Origin: an uncultured Acidobacteriota bacterium
GTDB taxonomy: Bacteria; Acidobacteriota; Thermoanaerobaculia; Multivoradales; UBA5704
Reading direction: 5' to 3'
Length of the DNA stretch: 64,000 nt
Assembly (NCBI GenBank): GCA_963770895.1
Contig: CAVYRF010000002.1
Location: 4,096,001 to 4,160,000 of the forward strand
How positions within the stretch are numbered: the first letter of the stretch is position 1; the number at the start of each line of letters is the position of its first letter. The translations under genes and the position numbers were made by a program. The notes below the pieces were generated by a model. It was not told the origin of the DNA. It did no database searches and worked only from the letters and a program-made list of their open reading frames with translations. Positions 2,646-61,298 of the stretch are shown here, in pieces.

Positions 2646-2646
2646 C

Positions 2647-9885: not shown

Positions 9886-32304
<22,419 letters not shown>

Positions 32305-32715: not shown

Positions 32716-33159
32716 ATGCATCAGGTAACGCAATTGAACGGCACGAGCGCCGCCATCGGTTCGCCGATGCCATACTTCGTGAACCCTGAGCTGAGCGCCA
32801 AGGCGCTCGAAATCAACTGGCGGTCGTTTGAGTACTACCCGCCGCTCGATCGCATCAAGCGCTACACCGAAGAGCATTACCAGGAAGAGATCCCGCTGCC
32901 GTGCGCCGCCGAGGTGGCGGGCATGGAAGCCACCTACTTCTCGGCTTTCTTCCGCAAGAAAGTCGGCATTCGCTATACCGACTGGCTGTGCTGCCTGCGC
33001 ATCTCGCACGCGATCCGGCTGATCTCCAGCCGCGACCAACCGATCGCGGACGTGGCGCTGGCGGTCGGTTTCAGCGATTTGCGGACGTTCCAGCGCGCGT
33101 TCAAGCGCGTCACCAACATGACGGCGCGCGAGCTGAAGGAGCGCGTCCGTCCGGCGTAG
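32716..33159 (+). CDS. AraC-family regulator (essentially DNA-binding domain only)
   Basis: AGMEATYFSAFFRKKVG...IADVALAVGFSDLRTFQRAFKRVTNMT double-HTH signature; start may be ATG 32767. Confidence 0.88.
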   Translation: MHQVTQLNGTSAAIGSPMPYFVNPELSAKALEINWRSFEYYPPLDRIKRYTEEHYQEEIPLPCAAEVAGMEATYFSAFFRKKVGIRYTDWLCCLRISHAIRLISSRDQPIADVALAVGFSDLRTFQRAFKRVTNMTARELKERVRPA

Positions 33160-33256: not shown

Positions 33257-34780
33257 ATGTTAATTCGCAAGGTCAACCCCGACGAGTTCGTCGATGCGTA
33301 CGACGTCAAGGAACAGATGTTCTATCCCTGGAGCGACGTCGTCTCGACGCCTTTCGGCGCCGCATGGCTGGTGGTCGAACCGGGACAGCGCACCAAGCCG
33401 CACAACCACCACGAGCAGGAGACCTTCTTCATCGTCAGCGGCCGCGGCAAGATGACCTACGACGGCGAGAGCCTGGACGTGGAGCCGGGGCACGTGGCGT
33501 ACTTCCCCGCCTTCGGCGATCACATTTTGGAAAATACCTCGGCGGACGAAGATCTGCACTTCCTCACCATTTGGTGGGAAGACGAATCGGTCGTCTCGGC
33601 GCTCAAGGACGGCAGCGCCGCCGGCAAGACGTCCGGCGCCGTCAAGGACCTGGTGGCGGTGTCGCTCGCGGCAGCGCCGGCGGCGCAGTCCGCGGCGGCG
33701 GTGATGGCTCGTTACCTGCTGCTGCGCGGCGCCCGCGCACGGCTGGCCCTGACGCCCGCGCCGGCGGCCGCGGGTGCGGACGCCACCGCGGCGGCCCCGG
33801 CCTGCGACCTGCTGCGGCGTCTGGCCGCCGCCGGCGCCATCACGGTCGACGCGCAGGGCGTGACGTTCGCGCCGGCACAGTTCGCCGCGGCGGTGCGCAG
33901 CCACTACGACCAGGCGACGATGAGCCCGCGGCTGCGCGCCCTGGTGGATGCCCAGCTGTTGCGCGGCGCCGCCGTGGCGACCCTGGCCCGGCCGGCCGCC
34001 GCCGGCGCGCCGGTGCCGCTGCCGGGCTTCACCGATCACCGCCTGGAACCCTGGTTCGAGAGCGCGGCGCGGGTGCTGGCGACGCCGCGCGGCGAAGAGC
34101 GGCCGGTGGTTTTCGTGGGCGCCGAAGGTTGGAGCGAAGCCGGCCTGCTGCCGGCGCTGGCCGCCGCGGCGGGCAAGACCTGGGCGCCGGTGGCGCTGGT
34201 CGACCTGACCGAAGCCGGGGCCGCCCTGCCCGAGTGGGCCGCCACCGGCGAGCCGCCTGCCGCCTGGACCGCCTGGCTCGGCAACCTGGGCGCCAACCTG
34301 GTGCGCGACGATGCCGGCAAGGTGCCGCCGACCCAGGCATGGACGACCGAGCAGCAGCGCTTCATGGCGCGCCTGCTGCGCTACGTCGACGAAGCCGGCG
34401 CCGCCTACGATCCCGCCACCTTCTCGCCGCGCGAAGCGGCGCGGGTGCTGTCCGACCTGGTGCGCACGGCCGGCGAGTACGCCGACCGCGAGCGCCCCTG
34501 GAACGGCATCGCCAACCGGCGCGAAGAGCGCAACACCGCCGTGGCGCTCGAAGCCCTGGCGGCCAAGGTGCTGGCCTTCCTGGCCCAGCCGCTGCTGCCG
34601 GCGTGGAGCGACCGGCTGTGGCAGGCCCTGGGATACAGCCGGCCGCTCGGCGCCGGCTCCTGGGAGACGACCCCGACCTTCGTGCCCACCGGCAGCGCGG
34701 CGGCGGGCCTGGCAGAGCTGGCGGGACCGGCGCCGGTGCCGGCGGCGGCGCCTCTCGCGGTGGCGGGGGCGCCTTCCTGA
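33257..34780 (+). CDS. Cupin fused to degenerate methionyl-tRNA-synthetase-like domain (putative hydrazine-synthetase N-N-forming subunit)
   Basis: Cupin motifs PHNHHEQETFF and PAFGDHILEN. C-terminal part aligns by eye with the 37681 MetRS-like protein (PVPLPGF..RL..WFE; FSPR; P.LP..S.RLW..LG) but lacks HIGH, Zn-knuckle and KMSKS motifs. Confidence 0.8.
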   Translation: MLIRKVNPDEFVDAYDVKEQMFYPWSDVVSTPFGAAWLVVEPGQRTKPHNHHEQETFFIVSGRGKMTYDGESLDVEPGHVAYFPAFGDHILENTSADEDLHFLTIWWEDESVVSALKDGSAAGKTSGAVKDLVAVSLAAAPAAQSAAAVMARYLLLRGARARLALTPAPAAAGADATAAAPACDLLRRLAAAGAITVDAQGVTFAPAQFAAAVRSHYDQATMSPRLRALVDAQLLRGAAVATLARPAAAGAPVPLPGFTDHRLEPWFESAARVLATPRGEERPVVFVGAEGWSEAGLLPALAAAAGKTWAPVALVDLTEAGAALPEWAATGEPPAAWTAWLGNLGANLVRDDAGKVPPTQAWTTEQQRFMARLLRYVDEAGAAYDPATFSPREAARVLSDLVRTAGEYADRERPWNGIANRREERNTAVALEALAAKVLAFLAQPLLPAWSDRLWQALGYSRPLGAGSWETTPTFVPTGSAAAGLAELAGPAPVPAAAPLAVAGAPS

Positions 34781-34837
34781 CGCCTGCGGCGCCGTCGCGC
34801 CCGGCGCGGCGGCAGCGGGTCGCGGAGCCCATGCGAA

Positions 34838-36199
34838 ATGCTGCTTGAGCCGAAGGACGATGCGGAGTCGGGGTGGATCGGGATGCTGCCGCCCGCGCCC
34901 GCGCTGTGCCCGCTCAGCGGCGACGAGCGCTGCGACTCCGCGATCATCGGCGCCGGGTTGACCGGCCTGGCCATCGCCCGCCGCCTGGTCGAGCTGCGGC
35001 CGGGCGAGCGGGTGGTGATCGTGGACGCCCAACGCGTCGGCTATGGCGCCTCGGGGCGCAACGCCGGGTTCGTCGTCGAGCTGACCGACTTCGCGGCGCG
35101 CATGGCGCCGGCCGACCGCCAGCGCTACGTGCGGGTGGCCCGGTTCGGCATCCGCTGCCTGCGCGAGCAGATCGCCGAGCACGGCATCGACTGCGGCTGG
35201 GACGACCAGGGGGTGCTGCGCGCGGCGGCGGGGGAGGAGGGGCACCGCGCCCTGGCCTCCTGGCCTGCATGGCTGGACACCGCCGGTTCTCCCTACACCC
35301 GCCTGGACGCGGCGGCCACCGCGGCGGTGACCGGCACCCCTTTCTATACCGGCGCCATCCGTTTTGGCGGCACCGCCAACGTGCAGCCGGCGGCGCTGGT
35401 GCGCGGCCTTGCCGCCGCGCTCCCCGGCGAGGTGACGGTGTTTGAAAACTCGCCGGTGCGGGCGATCCGACGCCAGGCCCTCGGCAACGGTGGGGATCGG
35501 AGCCATGGCGGCAACGGCAAGAGCGGCGCCGGCGGCGGCGCCGGTTTCCACCTCGAGGTGGGCGGCGGCACGCTCACCGCTCGGCGCCTGTTCGTGGCGG
35601 TCAACGGCTATACCCCCGGCCTGGGCCTGCTGCGCCAGCGGGTGTCGCCGCTGTGGAGCTTTGCCAGCCTGACCCGCGTGCTGAGCGCCGGCGAGCAGGC
35701 GGCGGTCGGCGGCGATCCGCAGTGGGGAGTGCTGGCGACCGATCCCTCGGGCTCGACCGTGCGGCGCACGGCGGACCAGCGCATCATGATGCGCAACACC
35801 TTTCACTTCACCTCCGAGCTGACGGTGCCGCCGGAAGTGCGCCAGGCGGCGGCGGTGCGCCATCGCGAGGCGGTCGCGGCGCGCTGGCCGGCGCTCCAGG
35901 ACGTGCCGTTCGAGTACACCTGGGGCGGGCTGATGGGAGTTTCCAGCAACGGCCAGGCGTACTTCGGCGAGCTGGAACAGAACCTTTTCACCGTGGCGAT
36001 CTACAACACCGCAGGGCTCGCGATGAGCGCCGCGGCGGGCCGCCTGCTGGCGGACCTGGCCCTGGGCTTGCGGTCGCCCCTGCTGCAAGACATCGGGCAG
36101 CTGCCGCTGCCCTCCTGGTTGCCGCCCGAGCCGCTGCGCTCCGCGCGCGGGCGGCGCAAAGTCGCGAAGCTGAACAGCCAGGCCGGAGCCTACCTGTAG
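34838..36199 (+). CDS. FAD-dependent oxidoreductase, D-amino-acid oxidase/PuuB-like
   Basis: IIGAGLTG dinucleotide fold, GYGASGRNAG, QPAALVRGLA, YTWGGLMG. Confidence 0.85.
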   Translation: MLLEPKDDAESGWIGMLPPAPALCPLSGDERCDSAIIGAGLTGLAIARRLVELRPGERVVIVDAQRVGYGASGRNAGFVVELTDFAARMAPADRQRYVRVARFGIRCLREQIAEHGIDCGWDDQGVLRAAAGEEGHRALASWPAWLDTAGSPYTRLDAAATAAVTGTPFYTGAIRFGGTANVQPAALVRGLAAALPGEVTVFENSPVRAIRRQALGNGGDRSHGGNGKSGAGGGAGFHLEVGGGTLTARRLFVAVNGYTPGLGLLRQRVSPLWSFASLTRVLSAGEQAAVGGDPQWGVLATDPSGSTVRRTADQRIMMRNTFHFTSELTVPPEVRQAAAVRHREAVAARWPALQDVPFEYTWGGLMGVSSNGQAYFGELEQNLFTVAIYNTAGLAMSAAAGRLLADLALGLRSPLLQDIGQLPLPSWLPPEPLRSARGRRKVAKLNSQAGAYL

Positions 36200-36261
36200 G
36201 CCGCACCGCGGCGGCTCCGCACCCCACGAACGGTAGACCTCAGAAGGAAAGGCGACGAGCG

Positions 36262-37668
36262 ATGAAGCAGCGGAATCGGATCGAGGATGCGGAAGCCCGT
36301 CACACAGGCGCGCCTCTCGACGTGATCGGCATTGGGTTCGGTCCTGCCAATCTCGCCCTGGCCGCGTGCTTGAAAGAGCAGCCGGAGATGATCGAAGGCC
36401 GGCTGGTGCAGAGCCTCTTTTTGGAGCGCAAGCCGCACTACGAGTGGCACCCCGACATGCTGATCCAGGGGGCGGAGATCCAGGTGCCTTTTCTCAAGGA
36501 CCTGGTGAGCCTGCGCAATCCGATCAGCCGTTTTTCTTTCCTCAACTACCTGCACGTGCACGGCAGGCTGCTCGATTTTGTCAACCTGCGCACGTTCTTC
36601 CCCACCCGCGTCGAATTCAACCAGTACTACACCTGGGTGGCGGGGCAGCTGTCCGACCGCGTGCGCTACGACCGCGAAGTGCTGTCGGTGCAGCCCGTGC
36701 CGGCCGAGGAGGACGGCGTGGTCGAGCTGCTGCAGGTCAAGGCGCGGCACCAGGCGACCGGCCGCGTCGAGGAATACCTGACGCGCAACCTGGTGGTGGC
36801 GACCGGCGGCTCGCCCTACATCCCGCCCGGCATCGACATCAGCACCACCGACAAGGTGTTCCATTCGCAGACCTTCCTTGCCGGGCTGCGGCAGCACTTC
36901 CCCGACCCCGACGCGCCCTACCGGTTCGTCGTCGTGGGTTCGGGCCAGAGCGCCGCGGAGATCTTCCAATACCTGTTCTCCAACTACCCCAACTCCGACG
37001 TGACGGCGACGATGCGGCGCTTCGCCTACAAGCCGGCCGACGAAAGCGAGTTCGTCAACGAGATCTATTCGCCGGCGATGACCGACGTGTTCTTCGGCCT
37101 GCCCGAAGCGGAGCGGCGCAGCCTGCACGCGGCGCACGCCGACACCAACTATTCGGCGGTCGACCTGGAGCTGATCCGTTCCATCTTCCGCGCCATGTAC
37201 CAGATGAAGGTGAACGGCCAGAGCCGCGTGCGGGTGCGCGCGATGTGCGAGCTCAAGCAGCTCGAAAAGAGCGGCGACAGCCTGGTCGCCACGGTGTGGA
37301 ACAAGGTGGCGGCGCGCATGGAAACCCTGGAAGCCGACGGCGTCGTGCTGGCGACCGGCTTCACCCGGCCGCGCCGCCATCCGCTGCTGCGCGAGCTGAA
37401 CAACCACCTGCTGACGACGCTTGACGGCGCCTACGACGTCCACCGCGACTACCGGGTGCGCAGCGTGCCGGGCTTCACGCCGGGCATCTATCTGCAAGGT
37501 TTCTGCGAGACCACCCACGGCATCAGCGATTCGGTGCTGTCCATCCTGCCGGTCCGCAGTCAGGAGATCGTGCAGTCGATCGTCGGCGGCACTTGCAGCC
37601 GGGCCGAGGACCTGGAGACGGCGGTGGCGAGCGCCGCCTATCTGCCGAGCTCGGGCGAACCGCTGTAA
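36262..37668 (+). CDS. L-lysine N6-/L-ornithine N5-monooxygenase (IucD/PvdA family)
   Basis: DVIGIGFGPANLALA, WHPDMLI...QVPFLKDLVSLRNP.S.FSFLNYL, VVGSGQSAAE, TNYSAVD, VLATGF, THGISDSVLS. Confidence 0.93.
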   Translation: MKQRNRIEDAEARHTGAPLDVIGIGFGPANLALAACLKEQPEMIEGRLVQSLFLERKPHYEWHPDMLIQGAEIQVPFLKDLVSLRNPISRFSFLNYLHVHGRLLDFVNLRTFFPTRVEFNQYYTWVAGQLSDRVRYDREVLSVQPVPAEEDGVVELLQVKARHQATGRVEEYLTRNLVVATGGSPYIPPGIDISTTDKVFHSQTFLAGLRQHFPDPDAPYRFVVVGSGQSAAEIFQYLFSNYPNSDVTATMRRFAYKPADESEFVNEIYSPAMTDVFFGLPEAERRSLHAAHADTNYSAVDLELIRSIFRAMYQMKVNGQSRVRVRAMCELKQLEKSGDSLVATVWNKVAARMETLEADGVVLATGFTRPRRHPLLRELNNHLLTTLDGAYDVHRDYRVRSVPGFTPGIYLQGFCETTHGISDSVLSILPVRSQEIVQSIVGGTCSRAEDLETAVASAAYLPSSGEPL

Positions 37669-37680
37669 GGCGGGGAGGAC

Positions 37681-39372
37681 GTGATGAAGAGAGTGCTGAT
37701 CACCGCCACGCCGCCGACTCCCAACGGCGAGCTGCACGTCGGACACCTTTCGGGTCCGTACCTGGCGGGCGACGTGTTCAAGCGGTTCTGCCGGCTCAAT
37801 GGGCGCGAGGTGCGCTACATCACCGGCGGCGACGACAACCAGAGCTACGTCGCCACCAAGGGCGAGCAGCTGAAAATGACGCCGCAGCAGACGGCCGACA
37901 AGTTCAACGGCGCCATCGCCGACATCCTGCGGCGGGCGCAGATCGAAGTGGACGTGTACGTGCAGCCGTTGCACTCGGCGCACCATCCGCAGTTCATCGC
38001 CGAGTTCGTAAAGCGGCTGTACGCCGCGGGCCACCTGGTGGGCAAGGACGTCGCGGCCGCCTGGTGCGGCCAGTGCGAGCGTTACCTTTTCGAGTCGTAC
38101 ATCGGCGGCATCTGCCCGCACTGCGGCGCGCACTGCGACGGCAACGTCTGCGAAGCGTGCGCCGAGCCCAACCAGTGCACCGACATGATCGACGCGACCT
38201 GCAAGAAGTGCGGCAGCCCGGCGCTGGAACGCTCCTACCGGCGGCTGTTCTTCCCGCTGGCGCCGTTCGCGTCGCGCCTCGCCGACTACTTCTCGCGGGT
38301 GAGCATGGGATCGCACCTGGCGGCCTGCTGCGACCGCATGCTCGCCAAGGGGCTGCCCGACATCCCGGTCAGCAACCTGGCGGACTGGGGCATTCCGGTG
38401 CCGGTGCCCGGCTTCGAGGGACAGCGGCTGTACGCCTGGTTCGAGATGGGGCCGGGGTATCTGAGCGCCATCAACGAAATGTTCGCCCAATCGGGGCGCG
38501 GCGACGCCTGGGCGGACTGGTGGAAGTCGGACGACGCCGAGGTGGTGCAGTTCTTCGGCTACGACAACGCCTACTTCCACACCACCCTCTTCACCTCGGA
38601 AATGATGGCGTACGACCCGGAGATCCGCCTGCCGGCGGCCTTCGTCACCAACGAGTTCTACCGGCTGGACGGGCTCAAGTTCTCGACCAGCCGCAACCAC
38701 GCCATCTGGGGCAGCGCGGCGCTCGACCACCTGCCCTCGGACGTGTTGCGCTACTTCCTCTGCCTGGACCGCCCCGAAACGGCGCAGACCAACTTCCGCT
38801 GGCAGGACTTCCGGCGCGCCGTGCACCGCGATCTGATCGAGGGCTGGCAGCCCTGGCTGCTGCAGGTGGCGCGCTCGGTGCGCGAGGAGCACCAGGGGAG
38901 CGTGCCGCAGATGGCGCCGCTGTCCGCCAACGAGCAGCGCTTCGTCGCCGAGATGGCGGGGCTGGTAGTGGCGGCGACTGCCGGCTATCAGAAGGAGAGC
39001 TTTTCGCCGCGGCGCGTGGTGGCGGCGCTCAACCAGCTGGTGGAGTCGGCGCGCATGTTCGGCGAGGCGGCCGGCTACTGGCGCAGCGGCGCCCACGAGC
39101 GGCGGCGCAATGCCGCGGCGCTGTCGGTCAGCGCCGTCGCGACGCTCGCGGCGCTGGCAGCGCCGATCATGCCGTCGCTTTCGGCGCGGCTCTGGTCCGA
39201 GCTGGGCCTGGGCCAGGCGCCCGCCGCGGGCGACTGGCCGACGCAGCCGGTGATGGTGCCGGCCGGCCGGCAGCTGCGCGGCATGGACAGCGCCTATTTC
39301 ACCGGTATCGACAGCGGGTGCGACGCGCTGGAGGCGGCGCGAGCGCCGGCGGGGGCCGCGGCCGTCGCCTGA
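37681..39372 (+). CDS. Methionyl-tRNA-synthetase-like class I aaRS paralog (biosynthetic)
   Basis: PPTPNGELHVGH (HIGH), four CxxC (CGQC, CPHC, CEAC, CKKC), FFGYDNAYFH, KFSTS (KMSKS variant); located in the tailoring operon. Confidence 0.9.
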   Translation: MMKRVLITATPPTPNGELHVGHLSGPYLAGDVFKRFCRLNGREVRYITGGDDNQSYVATKGEQLKMTPQQTADKFNGAIADILRRAQIEVDVYVQPLHSAHHPQFIAEFVKRLYAAGHLVGKDVAAAWCGQCERYLFESYIGGICPHCGAHCDGNVCEACAEPNQCTDMIDATCKKCGSPALERSYRRLFFPLAPFASRLADYFSRVSMGSHLAACCDRMLAKGLPDIPVSNLADWGIPVPVPGFEGQRLYAWFEMGPGYLSAINEMFAQSGRGDAWADWWKSDDAEVVQFFGYDNAYFHTTLFTSEMMAYDPEIRLPAAFVTNEFYRLDGLKFSTSRNHAIWGSAALDHLPSDVLRYFLCLDRPETAQTNFRWQDFRRAVHRDLIEGWQPWLLQVARSVREEHQGSVPQMAPLSANEQRFVAEMAGLVVAATAGYQKESFSPRRVVAALNQLVESARMFGEAAGYWRSGAHERRRNAAALSVSAVATLAALAAPIMPSLSARLWSELGLGQAPAAGDWPTQPVMVPAGRQLRGMDSAYFTGIDSGCDALEAARAPAGAAAVA

Positions 39373-39435: not shown

Positions 39436-40863
39436 ATGAGCGAGACCTTCGACGTAATTATCATTGGCGGCGGCCCCGCCGGCACCACGGTCGCGACCAA
39501 GCTGGTGCAGCGCGGCCGCAAGGTGCTGCTTTTGGAGCGCGAAAAGTTTCCGCGCTTCCATATCGGTGAATCGATCACCGCCTTCGGCTTCACGGTGTTC
39601 AAGGAGCTGGGGGTGTTCGACGAGCTCAACGCGATGAACGAGGTGAAGAAGAAGGGACTGGAATTCGTGTTGCACGAGAAAAAGTACAAGGTCTTCTTCT
39701 TCCAGGAGAACCGCGACGAGCCGGCGCGCTGGGCGTTCCAGATGGCGCGCGACAAGTTGGACAACGTGCTGCTGCGCAACGCCCAGAAGGTCGGCGTCGA
39801 CGTGCGCGAAGAGCACCTGGTCAAGCGCGTCCTGTTCCAGGGCGACAAGGCCATCGGCGTGGAATTCAAGGATTACTCGATGGGGCCGTCCGAGGAGCTC
39901 AAGTACGCCTACGCCAAGTGGATCGTCGACGCGTCGGGGCAGGGGGCGCTGCTCAACCACCAGCTGAAGGACAACTGGTACAACGACCCGCTGCTCGACA
40001 ACAAGATGGCCATCTTCTGCCACTGGAAGGGCGACATCACGGTCAAGAACACCGACGACGAGCTCAACTTCAAGCTGTGCGTGCACAAGAACCGCCGCGA
40101 CTGGTGCTGGTACATCCCGATCGCCAAGGACACCCTGTCGCTGGGCGTGGTGCTGAGCCCCGAGACGGTGAAGCGCGAAACGCAGACCAAGTCGCTGGAA
40201 CAGATCTTCTACGAGTACGCCAAGGACATCCCGTTCATCAGCGACATCCTCAAGAACACCACCCTGGAAGCGGTGGAGAAGTTCCGCATCGTGCGCGACT
40301 ATTCCTACCGCTCCAGCCGCTACTACGGCAACCATTGGGCGATCGTCGGCGACAGCGCCGGCTTCATCGACCCGATCTTCTCGACCGGCCTGCAGGTGGC
40401 GTTCAACAGCGCCTACGCGCTGATCGACCCGCTCAACCAGCTGCTCGACCACGAGGGCCCCGGCGAGGTCGACCTGTCGGTGCTCAAGGGCTACGACTAC
40501 GCGGTCAACCGCTACTACCGCATCAATTCGATGCTGGTCTACCTGTTCTACCTGTGCCGGCTGGACTACGCCAACTACAACTTCTGGTACATGTGGAAGC
40601 ACATCGAGTGGGCCGGCTGGAGCGACCGGCTGAAGTGCGCGCGACTCTACATCCGCTACATCATGGGGTCGGCGCAGAACAAGAGCAAGTGGTTCAACCA
40701 GGTCCTGTTCGGCAATCCGGGCGCCGAAAACCCGCTGGGCGACGTGGCGATGGCGCTGTCGGCCAACTACGATAAGGTATTCAGCAAGCGCGCCGCGCGG
40801 CCGCCGCGCGAAGAGAAGGAAAAGCGGGAGCAGTGGGTCGGAGCCCAGGCCGGCGCGGCCTAG
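39436..40863 (+). CDS. Flavin-dependent halogenase-family protein
   Basis: GGGPAG, FPRFHIGES, VKKKG (candidate catalytic Lys), DASG, WCWYIP (WxWxIP), GDSAGFIDPIFSTG. Confidence 0.82.
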   Translation: MSETFDVIIIGGGPAGTTVATKLVQRGRKVLLLEREKFPRFHIGESITAFGFTVFKELGVFDELNAMNEVKKKGLEFVLHEKKYKVFFFQENRDEPARWAFQMARDKLDNVLLRNAQKVGVDVREEHLVKRVLFQGDKAIGVEFKDYSMGPSEELKYAYAKWIVDASGQGALLNHQLKDNWYNDPLLDNKMAIFCHWKGDITVKNTDDELNFKLCVHKNRRDWCWYIPIAKDTLSLGVVLSPETVKRETQTKSLEQIFYEYAKDIPFISDILKNTTLEAVEKFRIVRDYSYRSSRYYGNHWAIVGDSAGFIDPIFSTGLQVAFNSAYALIDPLNQLLDHEGPGEVDLSVLKGYDYAVNRYYRINSMLVYLFYLCRLDYANYNFWYMWKHIEWAGWSDRLKCARLYIRYIMGSAQNKSKWFNQVLFGNPGAENPLGDVAMALSANYDKVFSKRAARPPREEKEKREQWVGAQAGAA

Positions 40864-40950: not shown

Positions 40951-43392
40951 ATGATTTCAGATATCCGGCAGGCGCTGCGCCAGATGGCCGCCCACCCCGG
41001 CTTCACTCTGGTGACCGTCTTGACCCTTGGCCTTGGCATCGGCGCCAACACGGCGATCTTCAGCATGGCGCGGGGGGTGCTGATGCGCCCCCTGCCCTAT
41101 GCCCACGGCGCCGCCCTGGTGCACATGGTGCCGCGCATCTCGGGCGCGGTCGGCGACCAGGTGTACTTCCCGGTGTTGGAGGTGCTCGACTACCGCCGCG
41201 AAAATCAGACCCTGGCGGCGGTGCTCGAATACCACTCGATGACGTTCAACCTGCTGGGCGAGGGCGAGCCCGACCGGGTGCAGACCGGCGTCGTCTCGGC
41301 CAACTTTTTCCGCGGCTTCGGCATCGCGCCGATCCTCGGCCGTGACTTTCGCCCGGACGACGACGCGCCGGGCGCCAACCCGGTGCTGCTGCTGTCCTAC
41401 GACTACTGGAAGGACCGCTTCGGCGGCGATCCCAAGGTCGTCGGCAAGCGGCTGCGCATGAACAGCCGTGAGATCGAAGTCATCGGCGTGCTGCCGCGGC
41501 TGCCCGCCTATCCCGGCAACGACCGGGTGTTCATGCCGACCTCTTCGTGCCCCTTCCGGTCGTCGGAAGGCACCAAGTCCAACCGCAACATCCGCATGGT
41601 CAGCATGTGGGCTCAGCTCAAGCCCGGCGTGACGCTCGATCAGGCGCAGGCCGACATCTCGACGCTGACGTCGCGCGAGCTGCGGTCGTTCCCCACCGCC
41701 TCGACCGCCGGCCTGCGCGTCGACCTGGTGCCGGTCAGCCAGGAGCTGACCGGGCACTTCCGGCCGACGCTCCTCATCCTGCTGGGGACGGTGGCCCTGG
41801 TGCTGCTGCTCGCCTGCGCCAACGCCGCCAACCTCACCTTTGCGCGGCTGCTCAGCCGCGAGCGTGAAGTGGTGGTGCGTGCGGCGCTGGGCGCCAGCAA
41901 GGCGCGCCTGGTGCGCCAGCTGCTGACCGAAAGCGTCCTGACGTCGCTCATGGGCGGCGTCCTGGGGTGCCTGCTGGCGGTCTTCGGGCTGGACCTGCTG
42001 GTCTCCTTCGCGCAGCGCTTCACGCCGCGCGCGGTGGAAATCCGCATCGACGGCGTGGTGCTGCTGTTCTCGCTGGGGCTGTCGCTGCTCGCCGGGTTCG
42101 CCTCGGGATGGCTGCCGGCGGTGCAGGCGCTGCGCCACAACCTGGCCGCCTCGCTCAAGGAGGGGGCGGGACGCTCGACGGCGGCAGCCGGCAAGCGGCG
42201 TTTCCGCGACCTGATGGTGGCGGCGCAGGTGGGGGTGTCGCTGGTGCTGCTGATCGGCGCCGGCCTGATGGTGCGCAGCCTGGTGCGGCTGATCGAAGTC
42301 GATCCCGGCTTCCGGCCGGAGCGGGTGCTGACCGCGACGCTGGAGCTGCCGTTCTCCAAGTACCCGCCGGGCGGGCCGCAGATCGCCAACTTCTTCACCC
42401 GGCTCTTGCAGGACATGGCGACCGATCCCAACGTCATCTCGGCGGCGGTGTCGAGCGACGTGCCGATGGGCGATTCCGACCTGATGACGCCGGACTACAA
42501 GGTCGAGGGGCAGCCGACGCCGGTCGGCCAGCCGGCGCCGCGCGCCGACGTGCACATCGCGAGCGAGGACTACTTCACGACGCTCGGCATCCCGATGGGC
42601 GAGGGGCGCTCGTTCACCTCGCAGGACAGCCTGCACGCGCCCGCGGTCATCGTCGTCAACCGCGAGATGGCCAAGCAGTGGTGGCCCAACCGCAGCCCGA
42701 TCGGCCAGCGCATCGCCATCAACTGGGCGCGCCATCCTGAGATGCGCACCATCGTCGGGGTGGTGTCCAACGTCCGCCACGAAGGGCTGACGGCCAAGGA
42801 GCACCCGACGATCTACCTGCCCTTCCAGCAGCTGCCGGGCGACGGTTCGCAGATCTTCGTGCGCACCCGCACCGACCCGTCCACCTTCCTGGCCAACCTG
42901 CGCGGGGCGGTGGCGACGATCGATCCCGAGCAGCCGGTGGCCAACATCCAGACCCTCGAACAGGTGCGCAGCAGCGCGCTGGCGCCCACCCGGCTGATCG
43001 CCATGCTGCTGTCGCTCTTCGCCGCCCTGGCGCTGATCATCACCGGCATCGGCATCGGCGCCGCCGTCTCCTTCGCGGTCGCCGAGCGCGTCTCCGAGAT
43101 GGCCATCCGCATGGCCCTCGGCGCCGACGGCGGCAGCGTCCTGTCGCTGCTCTTCAAGCGCGCCATGGGCCCGGTCTTCATCGGCTTGGCCCTGGGCCTG
43201 GCCGTCGCCATCACCCTGACCCGCGTCCTGGCCAGCAGCCTGGCCGGCATCGGCCTCTTCGGCATCGGCGCCACCGACCCCCTGGCCGTCGCCGCCGCCC
43301 TGGTTGTCCTCCTGGCCATCGGCGTCGTCACCTGCTTCCTCCCCTCCCGCCGAGCCGCCAAGGTCGACCCAGCCTCCGTCCTCCGCCAGTAA
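40951..43392 (+). CDS. ABC permease, duplicated MacB/FtsX type (ADOP-like)
   Basis: DIRQALRQM..HPGFT...LTLGLGIGANTAIFS, LLLACANAANL, RQLLTES, second half AIRMALGA, C-terminal P.RRAAKVDP; 813 aa; no adjacent ATPase. Confidence 0.9.
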   Translation: MISDIRQALRQMAAHPGFTLVTVLTLGLGIGANTAIFSMARGVLMRPLPYAHGAALVHMVPRISGAVGDQVYFPVLEVLDYRRENQTLAAVLEYHSMTFNLLGEGEPDRVQTGVVSANFFRGFGIAPILGRDFRPDDDAPGANPVLLLSYDYWKDRFGGDPKVVGKRLRMNSREIEVIGVLPRLPAYPGNDRVFMPTSSCPFRSSEGTKSNRNIRMVSMWAQLKPGVTLDQAQADISTLTSRELRSFPTASTAGLRVDLVPVSQELTGHFRPTLLILLGTVALVLLLACANAANLTFARLLSREREVVVRAALGASKARLVRQLLTESVLTSLMGGVLGCLLAVFGLDLLVSFAQRFTPRAVEIRIDGVVLLFSLGLSLLAGFASGWLPAVQALRHNLAASLKEGAGRSTAAAGKRRFRDLMVAAQVGVSLVLLIGAGLMVRSLVRLIEVDPGFRPERVLTATLELPFSKYPPGGPQIANFFTRLLQDMATDPNVISAAVSSDVPMGDSDLMTPDYKVEGQPTPVGQPAPRADVHIASEDYFTTLGIPMGEGRSFTSQDSLHAPAVIVVNREMAKQWWPNRSPIGQRIAINWARHPEMRTIVGVVSNVRHEGLTAKEHPTIYLPFQQLPGDGSQIFVRTRTDPSTFLANLRGAVATIDPEQPVANIQTLEQVRSSALAPTRLIAMLLSLFAALALIITGIGIGAAVSFAVAERVSEMAIRMALGADGGSVLSLLFKRAMGPVFIGLALGLAVAITLTRVLASSLAGIGLFGIGATDPLAVAAALVVLLAIGVVTCFLPSRRAAKVDPASVLRQ

Positions 43393-43983: not shown

Positions 43984-44056
43984 TTCCCGCCTCGCGACCC
44001 ACAGCAGGTTCCGGGGAAAAAGGCGAACCAGATGGGCAGATGACACATTGCACGCA

Positions 44057-44166
44057 CGTCCTGTCGCTGCTCTTCAAGCGCGCCATGGGCCCCGGTCCTC
44101 ATCGGCCTGGCCCTGGGCCTGGCCGTCGCTATCGCCCTCCCGCGTCTTGGCCAGCAGCGTGGCCGG
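44057..44166 (+). repeat. Degenerate ~110-bp copy of permease gene segment 43137-43247
   Basis: cgtcctgtcgctgctcttcaagcgcgccatgggccc... is identical at the start, then diverges with substitutions and small indels. Confidence 0.85.
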
Positions 44167-44249
44167 GGTGCGCCGAGCCGCCGGGCCGTCCACGACGGCG
44201 GTTTCCTGGCAATCGGCGCGCAGGGTGTCGCATGTTACAGTAGTGTCTT

Positions 44250-44738
44250 GTGAGCAACCGTGAACTCGATTTGCGCCGTTTGTCGGATGGCATTCCCCAG
44301 ATGCCACGCAGGCTGACTGCGCGCGAACGCCTTGCGGATCATGTGTTCTTCTACCTGCAGATGGCGTCGTGGTTTACCTTCCTGGTTGGTGGCATTGTCG
44401 GCTATGCGGTCAAGGGTCTGATCGGCTGCGTTGTCTTGCTTGGCGCCGGCACGCTGTTCGGCTTCTGGATGCGCAGAAGCCTCGGCAGGCGAGGCCGAGA
44501 TCCATTTCATGGGTTCTTCCGGCGTCTCAAGGAGCGCGCCAACGGCTCCCGCCGCGGACTGCTCGAATGGGCTATTGAAACCTTGCGTGGCAGTGGTTTT
44601 ACGCTCTCCAAGTGCCAAGCCATCACTGCCGCATACGAGCGGGCCATGGCGCAGGGTCGTTCGGCATCGCCAGCGGAGAGACAAGTTATCCTCCAGCACC
44701 TTGACGCAGAGGTTAAGCGTATCTCCTATTCGAGTTGA
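44250..44738 (+). CDS. Hypothetical membrane protein
   Basis: 162 aa with an N-terminal hydrophobic stretch (~2 TM); lower-GC region. Confidence 0.6.
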   Translation: MSNRELDLRRLSDGIPQMPRRLTARERLADHVFFYLQMASWFTFLVGGIVGYAVKGLIGCVVLLGAGTLFGFWMRRSLGRRGRDPFHGFFRRLKERANGSRRGLLEWAIETLRGSGFTLSKCQAITAAYERAMAQGRSASPAERQVILQHLDAEVKRISYSS

Positions 44739-44754
44739 CGCGCAGGTGCCGCAT

Positions 44755-45735
44755 ATGTCCTGGTCGCAGCGCCGGAAAGTGGTGTGGCGCGTGCTCGTAA
44801 CTGGCAACGCACTGCTGATCTTTGCCGCTATTGCCTCCACGGCCCTGGGGATCACAGCGGCATGGAATGCAACCAAGACTGAATTCTTGCACGCTCTGGT
44901 GAGCCTACTTTTCACTTTCGGCTGCTGGTCGTGCAGCCTGGTAGGGTGTTGGTATGGAGGTCTTGGGTTGCTCCAATGGCGCGAGTCGGGGCGGATTTTG
45001 CATGGAGTTTCGTCATCGGAGAGACGGGCGATGTCGGCTCTGTGCCGCATCTCGGACGCAAATCAGGTGGTTTATGGCTCTCAGCCAATGATGCTGATCC
45101 CTGGTGCAATTGCCCTGGGTGCTGCTTTGCTATTGAAGGAGCCGCGTTGGCTTGGCATCGTTGTCATGATGGCTGGTCTTCGATGGTGGCTTTGGGTACG
45201 CACCACGACGCCGCCGTTTGTCCTCTTCCTTTCCACCTCACACTCTCGAAGCATAGAGATGCATCGGCAGACCAAGCGCTTGGTGAGCCCGCTGCGGGTC
45301 GTGACGCTGCTGGACCTGGGCGACAGCCCGTCCCGCGTCGTGGACGAAATCCGCCTGGATTGCTTAAGAAGCGGCAATGACGCCGATTGGTGGAACGTAA
45401 TAACGATTCTAATCGAGGTGACACCACTGATCGTCATCAACGCCGACACGGAAAGTCCCGGCGTGCTGAGGGAAGCCCGGTACCTGATTTCGGAGGGCCT
45501 TACGTTCAAGGCATTCTTTCTGACCAAGGGCGACGCTTGTCTCCTCCGACGCGAGCCAGAACCAGCCGCCAGCGCATCAACCTGTCGTGTTGGTTCTGCT
45601 GCGTCACTGCAAGAGCTCATCATGGCGATTCTCAACAGCGAGAAGCTTCCGGAAAGAGGGCAGACCCTTGGGCCGCCTATCCGGCACGGAGCTTTTCCCG
45701 GATCACCCGGCAGGGACTGCGGACCCGGCGTGTGA
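44755..45735 (+). CDS. Hypothetical multi-TM protein with soluble C-terminal alpha/beta domain
   Basis: Start MSWSQRR 17 bp after the upstream stop; ~4 hydrophobic segments, then PFVLFL...WWNVITILIE..PLIVINAD..SPGVLREA. Confidence 0.6.
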   Translation: MSWSQRRKVVWRVLVTGNALLIFAAIASTALGITAAWNATKTEFLHALVSLLFTFGCWSCSLVGCWYGGLGLLQWRESGRILHGVSSSERRAMSALCRISDANQVVYGSQPMMLIPGAIALGAALLLKEPRWLGIVVMMAGLRWWLWVRTTTPPFVLFLSTSHSRSIEMHRQTKRLVSPLRVVTLLDLGDSPSRVVDEIRLDCLRSGNDADWWNVITILIEVTPLIVINADTESPGVLREARYLISEGLTFKAFFLTKGDACLLRREPEPAASASTCRVGSAASLQELIMAILNSEKLPERGQTLGPPIRHGAFPGSPGRDCGPGV

Positions 45736-46176
45736 CTGCAGATCAACTCTGGCGGTTTGCTCAGGCCGGGCGGGTCTGGTCGGTGGTGCGGCCCTACGTG
45801 GAAGCGATCGTCGCCGATGGCTCTTGAATCTCGCAACGTGGGTGCTTCCGTCCGTTCGCGTCTCCTCGACCGGGCTCGCGCCCATGGCTCCGAGTTCGAT
45901 CGATCTTTGCTGACGGCAGCGCTCCGCCGAACGTTCGAGCGGCGCCGTACCGCCTGGCCGGCGGCAACGCCGACCGGCCTTGGTGAAGCATTCGCGGCCG
46001 ATAAGAACGTGCAGTGGCGTGCGTTCCTCGGGCGCGAGCGTCTGGGCGCAGCGCCTGATGCGTTTTGACGCGTCATCGCAGACCTGCGCGTTTTCCTGGC
46101 GCCGCTGGTCGCCGAATACAAAGATGGCGAGCAGTGGATGCCTGGGGGTCCGTGGGCTCGCGAGGAGGGTGCCTGA
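45732..46176 (+). pseudogene. Type IV TA (AbiEi/AbiEii-like) remnants
   Basis: AbiEi-like C-terminus DQLWRFAQAGRVWSVVRPYVEA (to 45827). AbiEii-like N-terminus NVGASVRSRLLDRARAHG (from 45817) joined directly to C-terminal ALRRTFERR...QWRAFL, with in-frame TGA at 46066 and continuation DLRVFLAP...W.PGGPW. Confidence 0.65.
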
Positions 46177-49755: not shown

Positions 49756-51603
49756 CTACAGGGCGTCGACGCGGCGGCTGAGGGCGGTCAGGCGGGCGGC
49801 CAGGCCGGCGAGGGTGGCGGCGGTGGATTCCAGGTGCTCGCGCTCGGCGCGGATGAAGCGGGTGTAGGGGGTGATGGCTTCGTCGATGCGGTGCTGGCTG
49901 CGCTCGGTTTCGCGTTCGAACTGGGTGGTGAGGGTGGCCATGAGCTGGCTGCGCAGGGCTTCGATCTTGGCGGCGAGGTCGCGCTTGGCGGCTTCGCGGC
50001 GGCTGGGGATGATGAACAGGCCCAGGGCGGCGATGACGCCGCCGGCGAGCAGGCCGGTGGCGTCGGCGGCGGCGCCGACCAGGACGTGGGCCAGCAGGGC
50101 TCCCAGGCCGATGGCTCCGACTTCGACCAGGGCGGTGGAGGTGACGGCGGCCTGGACGTCGGCGGCCAGCCGGGTGGCTTCGTGGTCGCGATCGTAGGCG
50201 TCGACGGCGGCCTGGGCGGCGCGGCCGACGCTGGCCAGCAGGCGGTCGCGCTGCAGCTCGAAGGCGCCGCCGACCTGGCCGACGATGCGCTCGGCGTGGC
50301 GGCGGCGGCGGTCGTCGATGCGGGCCATGACGGCCTGCCACTGGCGCAGGTCGGCGGTGACCATCCAGTCGATGATCTCGTGGACGCGCTGGTCGATCAG
50401 GCGCGGCACGTCGGCGACGACCTTGGCGGCGAACTCGGCCTTGATGCGCGACTTGTTGACCAGGTCGAAGACGCGGGCCAGGCGCATGGTGTCGTCGAAG
50501 AAGCGCACGCCGCGCTGCTCGAACTCGCTCAGCACCAGGGCGACGTCGGCGAGGCGGAAGCGGAACTCCCGGCCCAGGTCTTCGCCATAGAGGGCGAGCT
50601 GGCGGTCGATGTCGTCGATCGTGGACAGGTCGTCCGCCAGCAGCGCCAGGCGTGCGGCGGCGTCGTCGCGGTAGCGCTGCGCCAAGCGGGCGGCGACGCC
50701 CAGCGGGTTTTGCAGCTTGAGGCGCAGGCGCTCGGCCTGGTCCAGGGTGCCGGTGATGAAGCGCTCCAGGTCGGCGAAGCGGCTGGTGGCCAGCAGCGCG
50801 GCGTCTGGGGTGCCGGGGGTGCCGGAGGTGCCGGAGGCGGCGGGGTTGGCGGGGTCGGCGGCGGTGGCGGGTGCGGCGGCCGCGGCCTTGGCGCGCTGCG
50901 CCTGGCGGGCCGAGACGGGGAAGATGTCGGGGGCGGCGCCCAAGAGCGCCGCGGCGTGCTGGGCGACGAAGGCGCGGACCTGCTCGACGTCGGCGTCCGA
51001 GGCCAGGATGTCGATCTTGTTGATCACCACGACGATCTTCTTGCCCCAATCGCGGATGCCTTGCAGGAAGGCGCGCTCGCTTTCGGTGAAGGGGCGGTCG
51101 GCGGAGGTGACGAAGAGCACCAGGTCGGAGCGCGGCACGAATTCGCGGGTGATCGCTTCGTGCTCGCGATGGATGGCGTTGGTGCCAGGGGTGTCGACGA
51201 TGTGGATCTCGCGCAGCAGCTCGACCGGCGCGGTGACCACCCGGACGTCGGCTTCGGCGGTCGCGGTCGGGGCCGGCCCTGGCGCCTGGCCGGCGGCGCC
51301 GGCGGTGGGGGTGTTGGCGGCGGCGTAGCGCAGCAGCTGGACCTGGGTGGTGGTCGGCGTCACGCCTTCGGCGAGCACCGGGCTGCCGAGGAGGGCGTTG
51401 ATGAAGGCGCTCTTGCCGGCGTTGAATTCTCCCGCCACGACCAGCAGGAAGAGGTCGTCGAGCTGGGCGCCCGAGCGCCGCAGCACTGCGCGGTCTTCGG
51501 GCGTCGCGCCGCAGTCTTCGAGCGCCGCCGCCAGGTCGGCGAGCAGCTGGCGCTCCTCCTCCAGGAGCACTTCCTGCTGCGGGGCGAGCAGGCGCCTCAG
51601 CAT
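49756..51603 (-). CDS. Bacterial dynamin-like GTPase
   Basis: GEFNAGKS (G1), GVTPTT (G2), DTPG (G3), NKID (G4), helical C-terminus with hydrophobic hairpin; start MLRRLL at 51603. Confidence 0.88.
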   Translation of the reverse strand: MLRRLLAPQQEVLLEEERQLLADLAAALEDCGATPEDRAVLRRSGAQLDDLFLLVVAGEFNAGKSAFINALLGSPVLAEGVTPTTTQVQLLRYAAANTPTAGAAGQAPGPAPTATAEADVRVVTAPVELLREIHIVDTPGTNAIHREHEAITREFVPRSDLVLFVTSADRPFTESERAFLQGIRDWGKKIVVVINKIDILASDADVEQVRAFVAQHAAALLGAAPDIFPVSARQAQRAKAAAAAPATAADPANPAASGTSGTPGTPDAALLATSRFADLERFITGTLDQAERLRLKLQNPLGVAARLAQRYRDDAAARLALLADDLSTIDDIDRQLALYGEDLGREFRFRLADVALVLSEFEQRGVRFFDDTMRLARVFDLVNKSRIKAEFAAKVVADVPRLIDQRVHEIIDWMVTADLRQWQAVMARIDDRRRRHAERIVGQVGGAFELQRDRLLASVGRAAQAAVDAYDRDHEATRLAADVQAAVTSTALVEVGAIGLGALLAHVLVGAAADATGLLAGGVIAALGLFIIPSRREAAKRDLAAKIEALRSQLMATLTTQFERETERSQHRIDEAITPYTRFIRAEREHLESTAATLAGLAARLTALSRRVDAL

Positions 51604-51751
51604 GCGCGGGGGCCTGGCGTGTGCCGTGGCTGGAGGGTGCCGTGCCGGTGCCGCGGGGTGTCCCTGGGAAGGGTCGCCGGGCGTACGCCGGTGGAGACGT
51701 CGCCGGCGCCGGTGGCGGGCCGCGCGCTGGGCTTTGCCATGCGCCGGAGTA

Positions 51752-51767
51752 TGGCATGCCTTTAGCA
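51752..51767 (+). promoter_or_regulatory. Candidate sigma-54 promoter upstream of the lipoprotein gene
   Basis: TGGCATGCCTTTAGCA: GG-N10-GC spacing, close to TGGCACG-N4-TTGCW; ~70 bp upstream of ATG 51838. Confidence 0.4.
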
Positions 51768-51837
51768 CTGGTAGGATTGCGACGCTGACGCCGCGCTTGC
51801 GCCCTCCTCCGGCGGCGTCCCCTTGAAAGGTGAACCG

Positions 51838-53115
51838 ATGAACGCGAAGATGCTGCTGGTCCTGGCCGGTGTAGGCCTGCTTGGCGCCGGCTGTGCCGTA
51901 TATGTGCCGTTGGGGCCCCCGCCGGGCCCGCCACCCCCGTCGCCGTATACGCAGGGCGGCCCGCCGCCCTATCAGCCACCGCCGCCGGGAGCGCCCGGCG
52001 ACCAGGGGTATAACCCCGCCGGCGCCGACCAGCCGCCACCGCCGGGAGCCGACCAGCCGCCGCCGGGAGCCGATCAGCCGCCGCCGGGCGACGACCAGCC
52101 GCCGGCGGGCGCCGCGCCGCCTCCGGGCGACCAGGACCAGGCGGACGTCGGGCAGTTCTACAACCAGCTGTCGCCCTACGGCGAGTGGGAGCAGGTGCCT
52201 TCCTACGGCTGGGTGTGGGTGCCGCGCGGCATGGCTCCGGGCTGGCGACCCTACAGCGTCGGCCACTGGGTCTACAGCGACGCCGGCTGGGCCTGGGTGT
52301 CGGATGAGCCCTTCGGCTGGGCCTGCTATCACTATGGGCGCTGGTTCGACGACCCCGGCTTCGGCTGGGCGTGGGTGCCGGGTCCGGTCTGGGCGCCGGC
52401 CTGGGTCGCCTGGCGCAGCGGCGGCGGCTACATCGGCTGGGCGCCGCTGCCTCCCGCCGTCGGCTGGCGCGCCGGATTTGGGCTGCAGCTGGGCGGCGTC
52501 GATCTGAACGTGGCGATCGGGCCGACGCACTTCTGCTTCGTCGGCGAGCACGACTTTCTGTCGGCGCACGTGCACGACGTGCTGCTGCCGCCTTCGCGCG
52601 GCGTGACCCTGATGCGCAACACGGTCAACATCACCAACTACACGGTGGTCAACAACCGCGTGGTCAATCGCGGCGTCGCGGTCGATCACATCGAAAAGGC
52701 GGTCGGCCATCCGATCCAGGCGGTCCGCCTGGCGTCGTCGTCGTCGCCGGAGCGGGCCGGGGTGCGCGGCGGCACCGTCGCCTTCTACCGGCCGCCGGTG
52801 CCCGCCGGCCGCGCCGCAGCGGTGGCGCGTCCGCCGGCGCGCGTGGCGCCCAACTACAGCGCCGAAGAGCTGGACCGCCGGCACCAGGCGGAACGGCAGG
52901 ACCTCGAGCGCTACCAGCAGTCGCAACGCGAAAACCTGCAGGCGTTGCACCAGCGCGAGATGGCCAGCCAGTCGTCGGAGGCGGGGCGCAGGCAGCTGGC
53001 GCAGCAGCACGCCCAGGAGGTGCAGGCGCAACAGCAGCTGCACCAGCGCCAGGCGCAGGTGATGCAATCCCGCCAGCAGCGGGAGCGCGCGGCAGTGCCC
53101 CACCCGCACCACTGA
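51838..53115 (+). CDS. DUF6600-like Trp/Gly-rich lipoprotein
   Basis: Lipobox LLGAGC; Pro-rich GADQPPP repeats; LSPYGEW...WRPY..GHW...WVSDEPFGW..YHYGRW; Gln-rich tail. Confidence 0.75.
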   Translation: MNAKMLLVLAGVGLLGAGCAVYVPLGPPPGPPPPSPYTQGGPPPYQPPPPGAPGDQGYNPAGADQPPPPGADQPPPGADQPPPGDDQPPAGAAPPPGDQDQADVGQFYNQLSPYGEWEQVPSYGWVWVPRGMAPGWRPYSVGHWVYSDAGWAWVSDEPFGWACYHYGRWFDDPGFGWAWVPGPVWAPAWVAWRSGGGYIGWAPLPPAVGWRAGFGLQLGGVDLNVAIGPTHFCFVGEHDFLSAHVHDVLLPPSRGVTLMRNTVNITNYTVVNNRVVNRGVAVDHIEKAVGHPIQAVRLASSSSPERAGVRGGTVAFYRPPVPAGRAAAVARPPARVAPNYSAEELDRRHQAERQDLERYQQSQRENLQALHQREMASQSSEAGRRQLAQQHAQEVQAQQQLHQRQAQVMQSRQQRERAAVPHPHH

Positions 53116-53248
53116 TCCGTCGTCGCTTGTTTGGCGGTTTCTCCAGCACCGGCCGGCTTGATGAGCCGAACGGTGCCGCGAGCGCCGGCGATGGCGTGCG
53201 TGCCAGCCGCGGCTTCGACGTCGGAGCCGGCGGTGCCTGCCCGGCGGA

Positions 53249-60935: not shown

Positions 60936-61031
60936 TGCCGTCTACTGGCTTGAAAGCGTTGCCGGCCACCTGCGCCAAGAGCCGCCTGATTCGTATCTGC
61001 AGTCCGATTGAGTGAAAGGGGCACTTGTGCC

Positions 61032-61298
61032 ATGGCGACCCTAACGATTCGCTTGCCCGATGAGAAGCACGAGAAGCTGCGCCAGCTTGCAATTCGCCGC
61101 AAGATCAGCATCAACAAGCTGATGGAAGAGCTGTCGACCATTGCCCTGACCGACTTCGACGCGGAAACCCGGTTTCGTGCTCGCGCCGCGCTCGGATCGC
61201 CGCGAGAAGGGTTACGGATGCTGGAGCCCCTTGCCGATGAGCCTACGGCCGATCCAGTGCCGAGCAAGGGAAGGACGGCGCGGCGCCGGACGCCTTGA
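61032..61298 (+). CDS. Ribbon-helix-helix (HicB/CopG-like) antitoxin, no toxin adjacent
   Basis: MATLTIRLPDEKHEKLRQLA..RKISINKLMEEL...FDAETRFRARAA.GS. Confidence 0.7.
   Translation: MATLTIRLPDEKHEKLRQLAIRRKISINKLMEELSTIALTDFDAETRFRARAALGSPREGLRMLEPLADEPTADPVPSKGRTARRRTP

Follow-up and report, generated by a model that had tools for sequence, protein, structure and literature searches.

The stretch of DNA analysed here (the window) comprises 64,000 nucleotides of an uncultured Acidobacteriota bacterium and carries, on the + strand, eight co-directional genes in succession that run from a nonribosomal peptide synthetase (NRPS) through a MacB/FtsX permease. The G+C content of the window is 66-78%, and its coding frames are clearly marked by the G+C content of third codon positions (GC3). 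Four of these genes, separated by gaps of 12-63 bp, form a compact cassette. The first (33257..34780) encodes P0001, a single polypeptide of 507 amino acids (aa) in which a cupin domain is joined to a degenerate domain related to methionyl-tRNA synthetase (MetRS), hereafter called the pseudo-domain. This gene is followed by those for a DAO-family flavin adenine dinucleotide (FAD) oxidoreductase of 453 aa (34838..36199; Pfam DAO, E 2.8e-45), a lysine/ornithine N-monooxygenase (NMO; 36262..37668; Pfam Lys_Orn_oxgnase, E 3.7e-109) and P0002, an intact standalone MetRS-like enzyme of 563 aa (37681..39372) whose database copy begins at the ATG at 37684. An N-hydroxylase gene is therefore located together with cupin and MetRS-like genes, as is characteristic of hydrazine synthetase systems. 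On the basis of homology, we consider that the four genes probably constitute a split cupin/MetRS-like hydrazine synthetase cassette that feeds an NRPS pathway in this soil bacterium.

The P0001 reading frame is uninterrupted, with GC3 values of 0.85-0.95 along its whole length, and the ATG at 33257 is supported by the MLIRK start that is common to all homologues. The continuous frame and an architecture shared with homologues rule out the presence of two separate genes or of a frameshifted pseudogene. The cupin domain (aa 1-110; 33257..33586, + strand) matches Pfam Cupin_2 at aa 38-106 (E 1.3e-15), as well as the solved structures of plu4264 (4mv2, E 1e-20) and RHS1 (5uqp, E 7e-8). An earlier, sequence-only reading of this DNA had noticed an HNHHEQE...H signature in the cupin, which we locate at aa 49-55 with the second-motif cupin histidine at aa 89. 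The candidate metal ligands are H49, H51, E55 and H89, and in the family alignment H49, H51, H52, E53, E55 and H89 are invariant across 32 sequences. When aligned to 5uqp, E55 coincides with the essential Glu69 of RHS1, which is the equivalent of PyrN Glu56. P0001 thus carries both the His/His(Asp)/Glu/His ligand set and the essential glutamate, and its cupin domain is predicted to be the N-N bond-forming half of the system.

Approximately 380 aa located C-terminal to the cupin are MetRS-like and homologous to P0002. Two segments are aligned by BLASTP, one matching P0001 aa 337-485 to P0002 aa 389-535 with 34% identity (E 1e-16) within a helical bundle, and the other (E 4e-9) finishing in a PVPLPGF/PVPVPGF block. 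Structurally, the pseudo-domain consists of a pseudo-Rossmann part (aa ~129-325; 33641..34231, + strand), delimited by alignments and the AlphaFold2 model, and the helical bundle (aa 328-490; 34238..34726, + strand), which BLASTP and Pfam identify as homologous to the MetRS anticodon-binding domain (Anticodon_3 at aa 356-461, E 1.7e-5). The bundle is the best conserved portion of the pseudo-domain and holds most of its invariant columns. Alignments also show that P0001 lacks HxGH, the K(F/M)S(T/K)(S/G) loop and all four CxxC motifs. An Ala-rich filler stands in place of the HxGH stretch, and both the connective-peptide (CP)/zinc-knuckle insert and the KFSTS-bearing segment just before the helical bundle are deleted. 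The sequence-only reading had matched the two proteins by eye and had described HIGH, KMSKS and the four CxxC motifs as gone from the cupin protein, and on both points the alignments agree with it.

The extent of this degeneration was assessed by mapping the PyrN residues that contact adenylate, the amino acid or N6-hydroxylysine (preprint 10.1101/2025.08.22.671884) onto the alignment, namely S138, T141, N143, HLGH, Q182, G418, D420, N421, N449, Y452 and KFSTG. These residues are kept in 41-45 of the 46 intact rows, except for S138 (T in 31, A in 13), and are lost in all 33 pseudo-domain rows, including the D420/N421 equivalents in the pseudo-Rossmann part. Among 120 intact relatives, by comparison, motif patterns match HxGH in 117 and KFS in 119, and the three sequences missed read HCGH or HAGH. 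The MetRS-like domain joined to the cupin therefore lacks the catalytic features of the didomain form. As far as can be judged from its residues, this domain is shown to be unable to bind ATP or substrates in the known way.

The loss of catalytic residues is not accompanied by loss of the predicted fold. The AlphaFold2 model of P0001, built from the family alignment, has a mean predicted local distance difference test (pLDDT) value of 81.9 and a predicted template modelling score (pTM) of 0.71. It contains a beta-alpha core (aa 131-316) and a helical bundle (aa 335-457), with disorder confined to the linker (aa 110-128) and the tail, and the strands and helices of the pseudo-Rossmann part have pLDDT values mostly of 73-94. 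A Foldseek search with this model places MetRS 2x1l at the top (E 4e-13, TM 0.58) and the PyrN C-terminal domain (PyrN-C, 9l8v) at rank 3 (TM 0.57). The model shows a pseudo-domain that keeps the MetRS-like fold, and so is predicted to be folded rather than debris. Given this predicted structure, the domain has the properties of a pseudoenzyme.

P0002 carries HVGH, KFSTS and four CxxC motifs and matches Pfam tRNA-synt_1g with an E value of 4.4e-89, and its closest solved relative is PyrN-C (9l8v, E 4.5e-87). Contact residues T10, T13, N15, Q54, G293, D295, N296, N324 and Y327 are all present, and the features sought in the MetRS-like domain of a hydrazine synthetase thus occur in a separate protein. 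The positions of R390 and R425, two arginines by which PyrN holds glutamate (preprint 10.1101/2025.08.22.671884), are occupied in P0002 by Gly and His, respectively. P0002 scores 323.5 bits against an NCBIfam equivalog cut-off of 587 for true MetRS, and a housekeeping MetRS is encoded elsewhere in the genome (G000:C2:5757561-5759120), which together rule out that P0002 is a real MetRS. By its motifs, P0002 is a complete MetRS paralogue of the hydrazine synthetase type, with a predicted activity of ATP-dependent O-aminoacylation of a hydroxylamine.

Proteins with the P0001 architecture form a family of their own. A word-based search recovered 34 homologous proteins, of which 33 (395-638 aa) combine a cupin with a degenerate MetRS, and the remaining one is a fused enzyme of canonical type that has HLGH, KMSTS and four CxxC motifs. 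HxGH and the KFSTS loop are absent from every one of the 33, and all four CxxC motifs are kept in five. The zinc-knuckle (CP) insert with four CxxC motifs appears in scattered members of the clade (P0007, P0009, P0018, P0029, P0034, P0163, P0165 and P0187), a distribution that implies repeated loss. When the pseudo-domain by itself was the query of an exhaustive phmmer search of 1.84 billion cluster representatives, 227 matches were obtained at E<=1e-3, 16 of them at E<=1e-30. A motif screen of the best 150 of the 227 sorted them into 20 cupin-plus-pseudo proteins, 43 intact fusions, 18 intact standalone enzymes, 47 fragments and 22 unclear cases. After an alignment check of the 20, P0255 was removed as intact and 14 newly found proteins stay, and alignment added the candidates P0253 and P0250, whose cupin motif had not been matched by the pattern. 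The named sources of the family are metagenome-assembled genomes (MAGs) of Thermoanaerobaculia and other Acidobacteriota, and matches at E<=1e-20 occur in only three of 401 sampled genomes of the window's phylum, all three from the window's family. Most named homologues are labelled 'mannose-6-phosphate isomerase-like protein (cupin superfamily)' or 'cupin domain-containing protein', and four (P0007, P0018, P0029 and P0034) are labelled 'methionyl-tRNA synthetase'.

Selection on the pseudo-domain was estimated as the ratio of nonsynonymous to synonymous substitution rates (dN/dS) by the Nei-Gojobori method (NG86), pooling seven fairly close pairs (dS 0.06-0.44) with a codon bootstrap. The ratio is 0.15 for the cupin (confidence interval 0.10-0.23), 0.45 for the pseudo-Rossmann part (0.39-0.54) and 0.39 for the helical bundle (0.31-0.49), values that are rough because NG86 is applied at GC3 above 0.9 and that come from pairs sharing some history and hence not fully independent. 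No bootstrap replicate reached 1. Same-locus controls gave 0.15-0.31 for the DAO gene, 0.33-0.49 for the NMO gene and 0.17-0.29 for the MetRS-like gene. Relative to its active paralogue the dead domain is thus relaxed about twofold, yet it is constrained like the N-monooxygenase. The sequence-only reading was to be abandoned if homologues showed the pseudo-domain decaying neutrally. Instead, with ratios of 0.39-0.45, intervals below 1 and clade-wide conservation, purifying selection is shown to maintain the pseudo-domain across the whole clade.

The evolutionary origin of the pseudo-domain was examined with two trees. In the first, based on the shared columns (60 rows, 353 columns), the pseudo family forms one group with a support of 90 in the Shimodaira-Hasegawa-like approximate likelihood ratio test (SH-aLRT), or 99 for 15 of its 16 rows. 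The P0002 clade is separate (SH-aLRT 99) and nested among intact standalone and fused enzymes. Constraining the pseudo family and the partner to group together costs 28.1 log-likelihood units, with a p value of 0.041 in the approximately unbiased (AU) test that is marginal and was obtained after the tree had been seen. In addition, fused enzymes of related genomes share 42-44% identity with the P0001 helical bundle, compared to 34% for P0002. The second, larger tree (79 rows) recovers a clade of 28 pseudo-domain proteins with a support of 97, sampled from Acidobacteriota/Thermoanaerobaculia metagenome genomes. The simplest reading, and the one that fits better, is that a fused hydrazine synthetase lost catalysis once a separate standalone MetRS-like enzyme existed, whereas a duplication of the neighbouring gene in situ accounts for the data less well. 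The sequence-only reading had interpreted the locus as a split synthetase with a dead MetRS-like paralogue on the cupin and the intact enzyme encoded separately, and this part stands. Its proposal that the pseudo-domain arose by duplication of the neighbour followed by subfunctionalisation does not, given the separate lineages in both trees, the AU result and a bundle nearer to the fused enzymes.

A second lineage of degenerate cupin-MetRS fusions (psi2; 618-626 aa) is found in Acidobacteriota MAGs. One locus, L030/L089, lies at about 1726705-1728582 of G370:C1, in a genome of the window's own family, and the other, L094, at 9001-10857. These proteins keep full length but lack HxGH and KFSTS, with QLGE at the HLGH position in L094 and the four CxxC zinc knuckles kept in L089. 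The psi2 genes are located between an N-monooxygenase gene and an opposite-strand DAO gene, and no intact MetRS-like gene lies within about 9 kb of them. The G370 genome carries two other intact hydrazine synthetase genes elsewhere. In the maximum-likelihood (ML) tree, psi2 is nested inside intact fused enzymes (SH-aLRT 95-99). However, a single origin of all pseudo-domains is not rejected by the AU test (p 0.27), and recurrent origin is therefore suggested rather than established. A distant pseudo member of 474 aa, 37% identical, is encoded at 1088-2512 of L070, with an intact standalone MetRS-like gene (3133-4761) 0.6 kb downstream. The product of the latter shares about 39% identity with every other sequence compared and falls in another lineage. 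The two L070 genes are separated by an open frame of ~190 aa.

Homology with PyrN, Spb40/Tri28, RHS1 and the Fuz cassette suggests the following pathway. The N-monooxygenase would make N6-hydroxylysine or a similar hydroxylamine, and P0002 would adenylate an amino acid and then esterify the N-OH group. The cupin domain of P0001 would rearrange the labile O-aminoacyl-hydroxylamine to a hydrazine. Presumably, the DAO-like oxidase would cleave the resulting lysine-amino acid hydrazine and free a hydrazino acid for the NRPS pathway, a role assigned by reference to the published four-gene cassette (PMC13149037).

For the pseudo-domain itself, we tentatively propose, from the analysis as a whole, that it is what remains of a hydrazine synthetase that was formerly fused, and that it has been retained as a structural module without catalytic function. 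Such a module might hold the cupin in the normal quaternary assembly of the enzyme. In the most plausible arrangement it would pair with P0002, taking the position of the second protomer in a PyrN-type homodimer, so that the ester could be captured by the cupin before non-enzymatic rearrangement to the amide. This possibility is favoured by three published observations. PyrN-C is dimeric in the crystal and its cupin is flexibly tethered (preprint 10.1101/2025.08.22.671884), and the ester goes spontaneously to the amide unless captured by the cupin (PMC8664883). Because the cupin is invisible in the PyrN cryo-electron microscopy map (preprint 10.1101/2025.08.22.671884), the route of the ester from the MetRS-like site to the cupin is still unclear, and a natural clade in which the cupin carries a large domain that is dead yet selected points to a non-catalytic role in assembly or hand-over.

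Several observations weigh against this proposal. When the PyrN domains are separated, they still work in trans in vitro, as does the 125-aa standalone cupin RHS1 (PMC8664883), and docking is thus not required for the chemistry. An intact MetRS-like gene is in place in only 6 of the 11 loci (window included) with enough downstream sequence to judge its adjacency. The five loci without it (L002, L006, L041, L003 and L044) represent two or three lineages, as L003 is identical to L044 and L002 matches L041 at 99%. In one genome, the pseudo-domain and DAO genes, the NMO gene and the MetRS-like gene are found at three distant places on two contigs. Conversely, an orthologue of P0002 (65-69% identity) is present in 5/5 genomes that have the pseudo gene (three negatives and two positives for adjacency), a co-occurrence that favours the pairing but is circumstantial. 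The roughness of the dN/dS estimates and the pseudo-domain's rate of evolution, about twice that of the intact enzyme, count against the proposal. Structure prediction for the complex of P0002 with the pseudo-domain (aa 125-495), made from separate alignments and without controls, gave interface scores (ipSAE) of 0.00 and 0.04 that carry no weight either way.

Three other explanations are each unlikely. The pseudo-domain might have no interaction role, being a decaying relic that is tolerated for cupin folding or solubility or is in the course of being lost. Decay is indeed graded among relatives, which range in length from 447 to 645 aa, keep the zinc-knuckle insert in 5/33 cases and include weakly degenerate members such as L094. 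The roughly twofold faster evolution fits as well, and known split systems function with cupins of 125 aa (PMC8664883). However, a relic would be hard to reconcile with dN/dS intervals well below 1 and similar to those of the neighbouring N-monooxygenase, with a helical bundle that is kept in the 28-sequence clade with many invariant columns, or with a confidently predicted fold. Moreover, open frames were read in all 18 full-length genes, with no frameshifts or stops seen.

It is similarly improbable that the pseudo-domain docks another component, either the NRPS or the DAO-like oxidase, to which the hydrazine product would be handed. In all 17 loci that are long enough to tell (another eight break off before this point), the DAO gene is located directly 3' of the pseudo-domain gene, also when the NMO and MetRS-like genes have other locations, and so constant a neighbour could be the partner instead of P0002, whose gene is adjacent only in the six loci mentioned above. 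Gene adjacency by itself is, however, weak evidence of binding. Furthermore, L070 has a MetRS-like gene and no DAO homologue in 11.5 kb, and the psi2 loci carry their DAO gene on the opposite strand. Least probable is the gain of a new ligand-binding or regulatory function, such as sensing or holding the hydroxylamine, ester or product, which would suit the retained Rossmann core and helical bundle, compact in the prediction, and conserved family-specific motifs such as PPTQAWT (aa 357-363 of P0001), but all PyrN residues contacting adenylate, amino acid or N6-hydroxylysine are lost and the PxTxxWT motif is common to intact fused enzymes and hence not a new pocket.

A more specific form of the structural module is conceivable, if rather doubtful. 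P0001 and P0002 could associate as an obligate heterodimer resembling the homodimer of the fused enzyme, in which a dead protomer would carry the cupin, a live protomer would make the ester, and the ester would be passed within the complex. The placement of the P0001 (psi) clade and of psi2 in the ML tree suggests that such an asymmetric, pseudoenzyme-scaffolded design might have arisen more than once from fused ancestors.

The order of the genes at this locus recurs, as the sequence-only reading had asked to be checked. The succession of AraC-family regulator, pseudo-domain, DAO, NMO and MetRS-like genes is repeated in L001, L005, L038, L046 and L047, and halogenase-like and FtsX genes then come after the MetRS-like gene in those loci where the sequence extends that far.

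Comparison with characterized systems places the cassette among known hydrazine synthetases. PyrN, Spb40 and Tri28 are, as had been stated earlier, single polypeptides. Like the proteins of the window, these didomain enzymes have the cupin first and the MetRS-like part second, the cupin ligands with the essential Glu, the MetRS-like fold, a neighbouring lysine N-hydroxylase and the same predicted chemistry. Unlike them, the cupin-fused MetRS-like domain of the window is dead and has 380 aa compared to about 550, and catalysis resides in a second gene. Natural split hydrazine synthetases with small standalone cupins have also been published (PMC8664883; preprint 10.1101/2025.08.22.671884). These include RHS1 with a standalone MetRS-like protein (Rhodococcus jostii), AsnHS-cupin/AsnHS-aaHS, Afn9/Afn8 and FuzE/FuzG, in which the cupin and MetRS-like proteins are separate, as in the window (PMC8664883; 10.1101/2025.08.22.671884; PMC11705231). 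A four-gene cassette of cupin, MetRS-like, N-monooxygenase and flavin oxidoreductase genes is likewise on record (PMC13149037). However, RHS1 consists of the cupin alone, at about 125 aa (5uqp), whereas the cupin of the window carries a conserved pseudo-MetRS of 380 aa. The literature covered makes no mention of a MetRS remnant on the AsnHS, Afn9 and FuzE cupins, whose lengths were not compared. Similarly, the full-text literature searched yielded no account of a cupin subunit with a conserved pseudo-MetRS domain, a scope in which a mention in supplements or in one phylogeny of these enzymes would not have been seen. Split synthetases and the four-gene cassette are thus already known, and the conserved pseudo-domain is the new element.

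A parallel is offered by HisZ, which acts with HisG and is an aminoacyl-tRNA synthetase paralogue without catalytic motifs that is kept by selection beside a catalytic partner. The partner of HisZ is an unrelated enzyme, and binding has been experimentally shown. The putative partner of the window's pseudo-domain would instead be its own active paralogue, with binding only proposed.

These findings should be of some interest to those who study N-N bond-forming enzymes or pseudoenzymes. Hydrazine synthetases are being mined and engineered as N-N bond-forming biocatalysts, and the clade offers a ready test system in which the full-length protein can be compared with the bare cupin. Genome mining for 'cupin-MetRS fusions' will miscount such proteins as complete didomain enzymes.

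Upstream of the cassette, the NRPS (7472 aa; 9886..32304, + strand; Pfam on two halves) contains seven condensation, six adenylation and eight peptidyl carrier protein domains, an FkbM-type methyltransferase and a thioesterase, and the hydrazine building block is probably used by this enzyme. Between this gene and the cassette is an AraC-family regulator (32716..33159, + strand; Pfam HTH_18, E 6.5e-19), which is also found upstream of the pseudo-domain gene in related loci with 77-87% identity. The regulator is co-directional with the cassette in the window and on the opposite strand (divergent) in all 21 related loci where it is seen. Directly 3' of the MetRS-like gene is a Trp-halogenase-like flavoprotein (39436..40863, + strand; Pfam Trp_halogenase, E 2.4e-26), with copies in L001, L016, L038, L046 and L047 that are 75-78% identical, a value exceeding that of every hydrazine gene. 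This high conservation suggests that the hydrazine or the peptide undergoes a further tailoring step. The last gene of the run encodes a MacB/FtsX-type permease (40951..43392, + strand; Pfam MacB_PCD and FtsX), which is kept in L001, L038, L046 and L047 and is a likely exporter.

Elsewhere in the window, the end of another NRPS with its own thioesterase occupies 15-5367, indicating more than one NRPS unit, and an open frame at 7371-9857 (- strand) joins an AMP-binding part to a luciferase-like monooxygenase. Approximately 11 kb past the cassette is a homologue of the LodA-type L-lysine epsilon-oxidase (54427-56439, - strand; LodA_N, E 5e-78), adjoined by an acetyl-CoA-synthetase-like gene, and a link of the LodA homologue to a lysine-based hydrazine pathway is possible. 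At 49756-53460 (- strand) is a large frame that encodes a dynamin-family GTPase of 1234 aa. The G+C fraction is lower at 44001-46000 (0.615) and 60001-62000 (0.624) than the 0.66-0.78 found elsewhere in the window.

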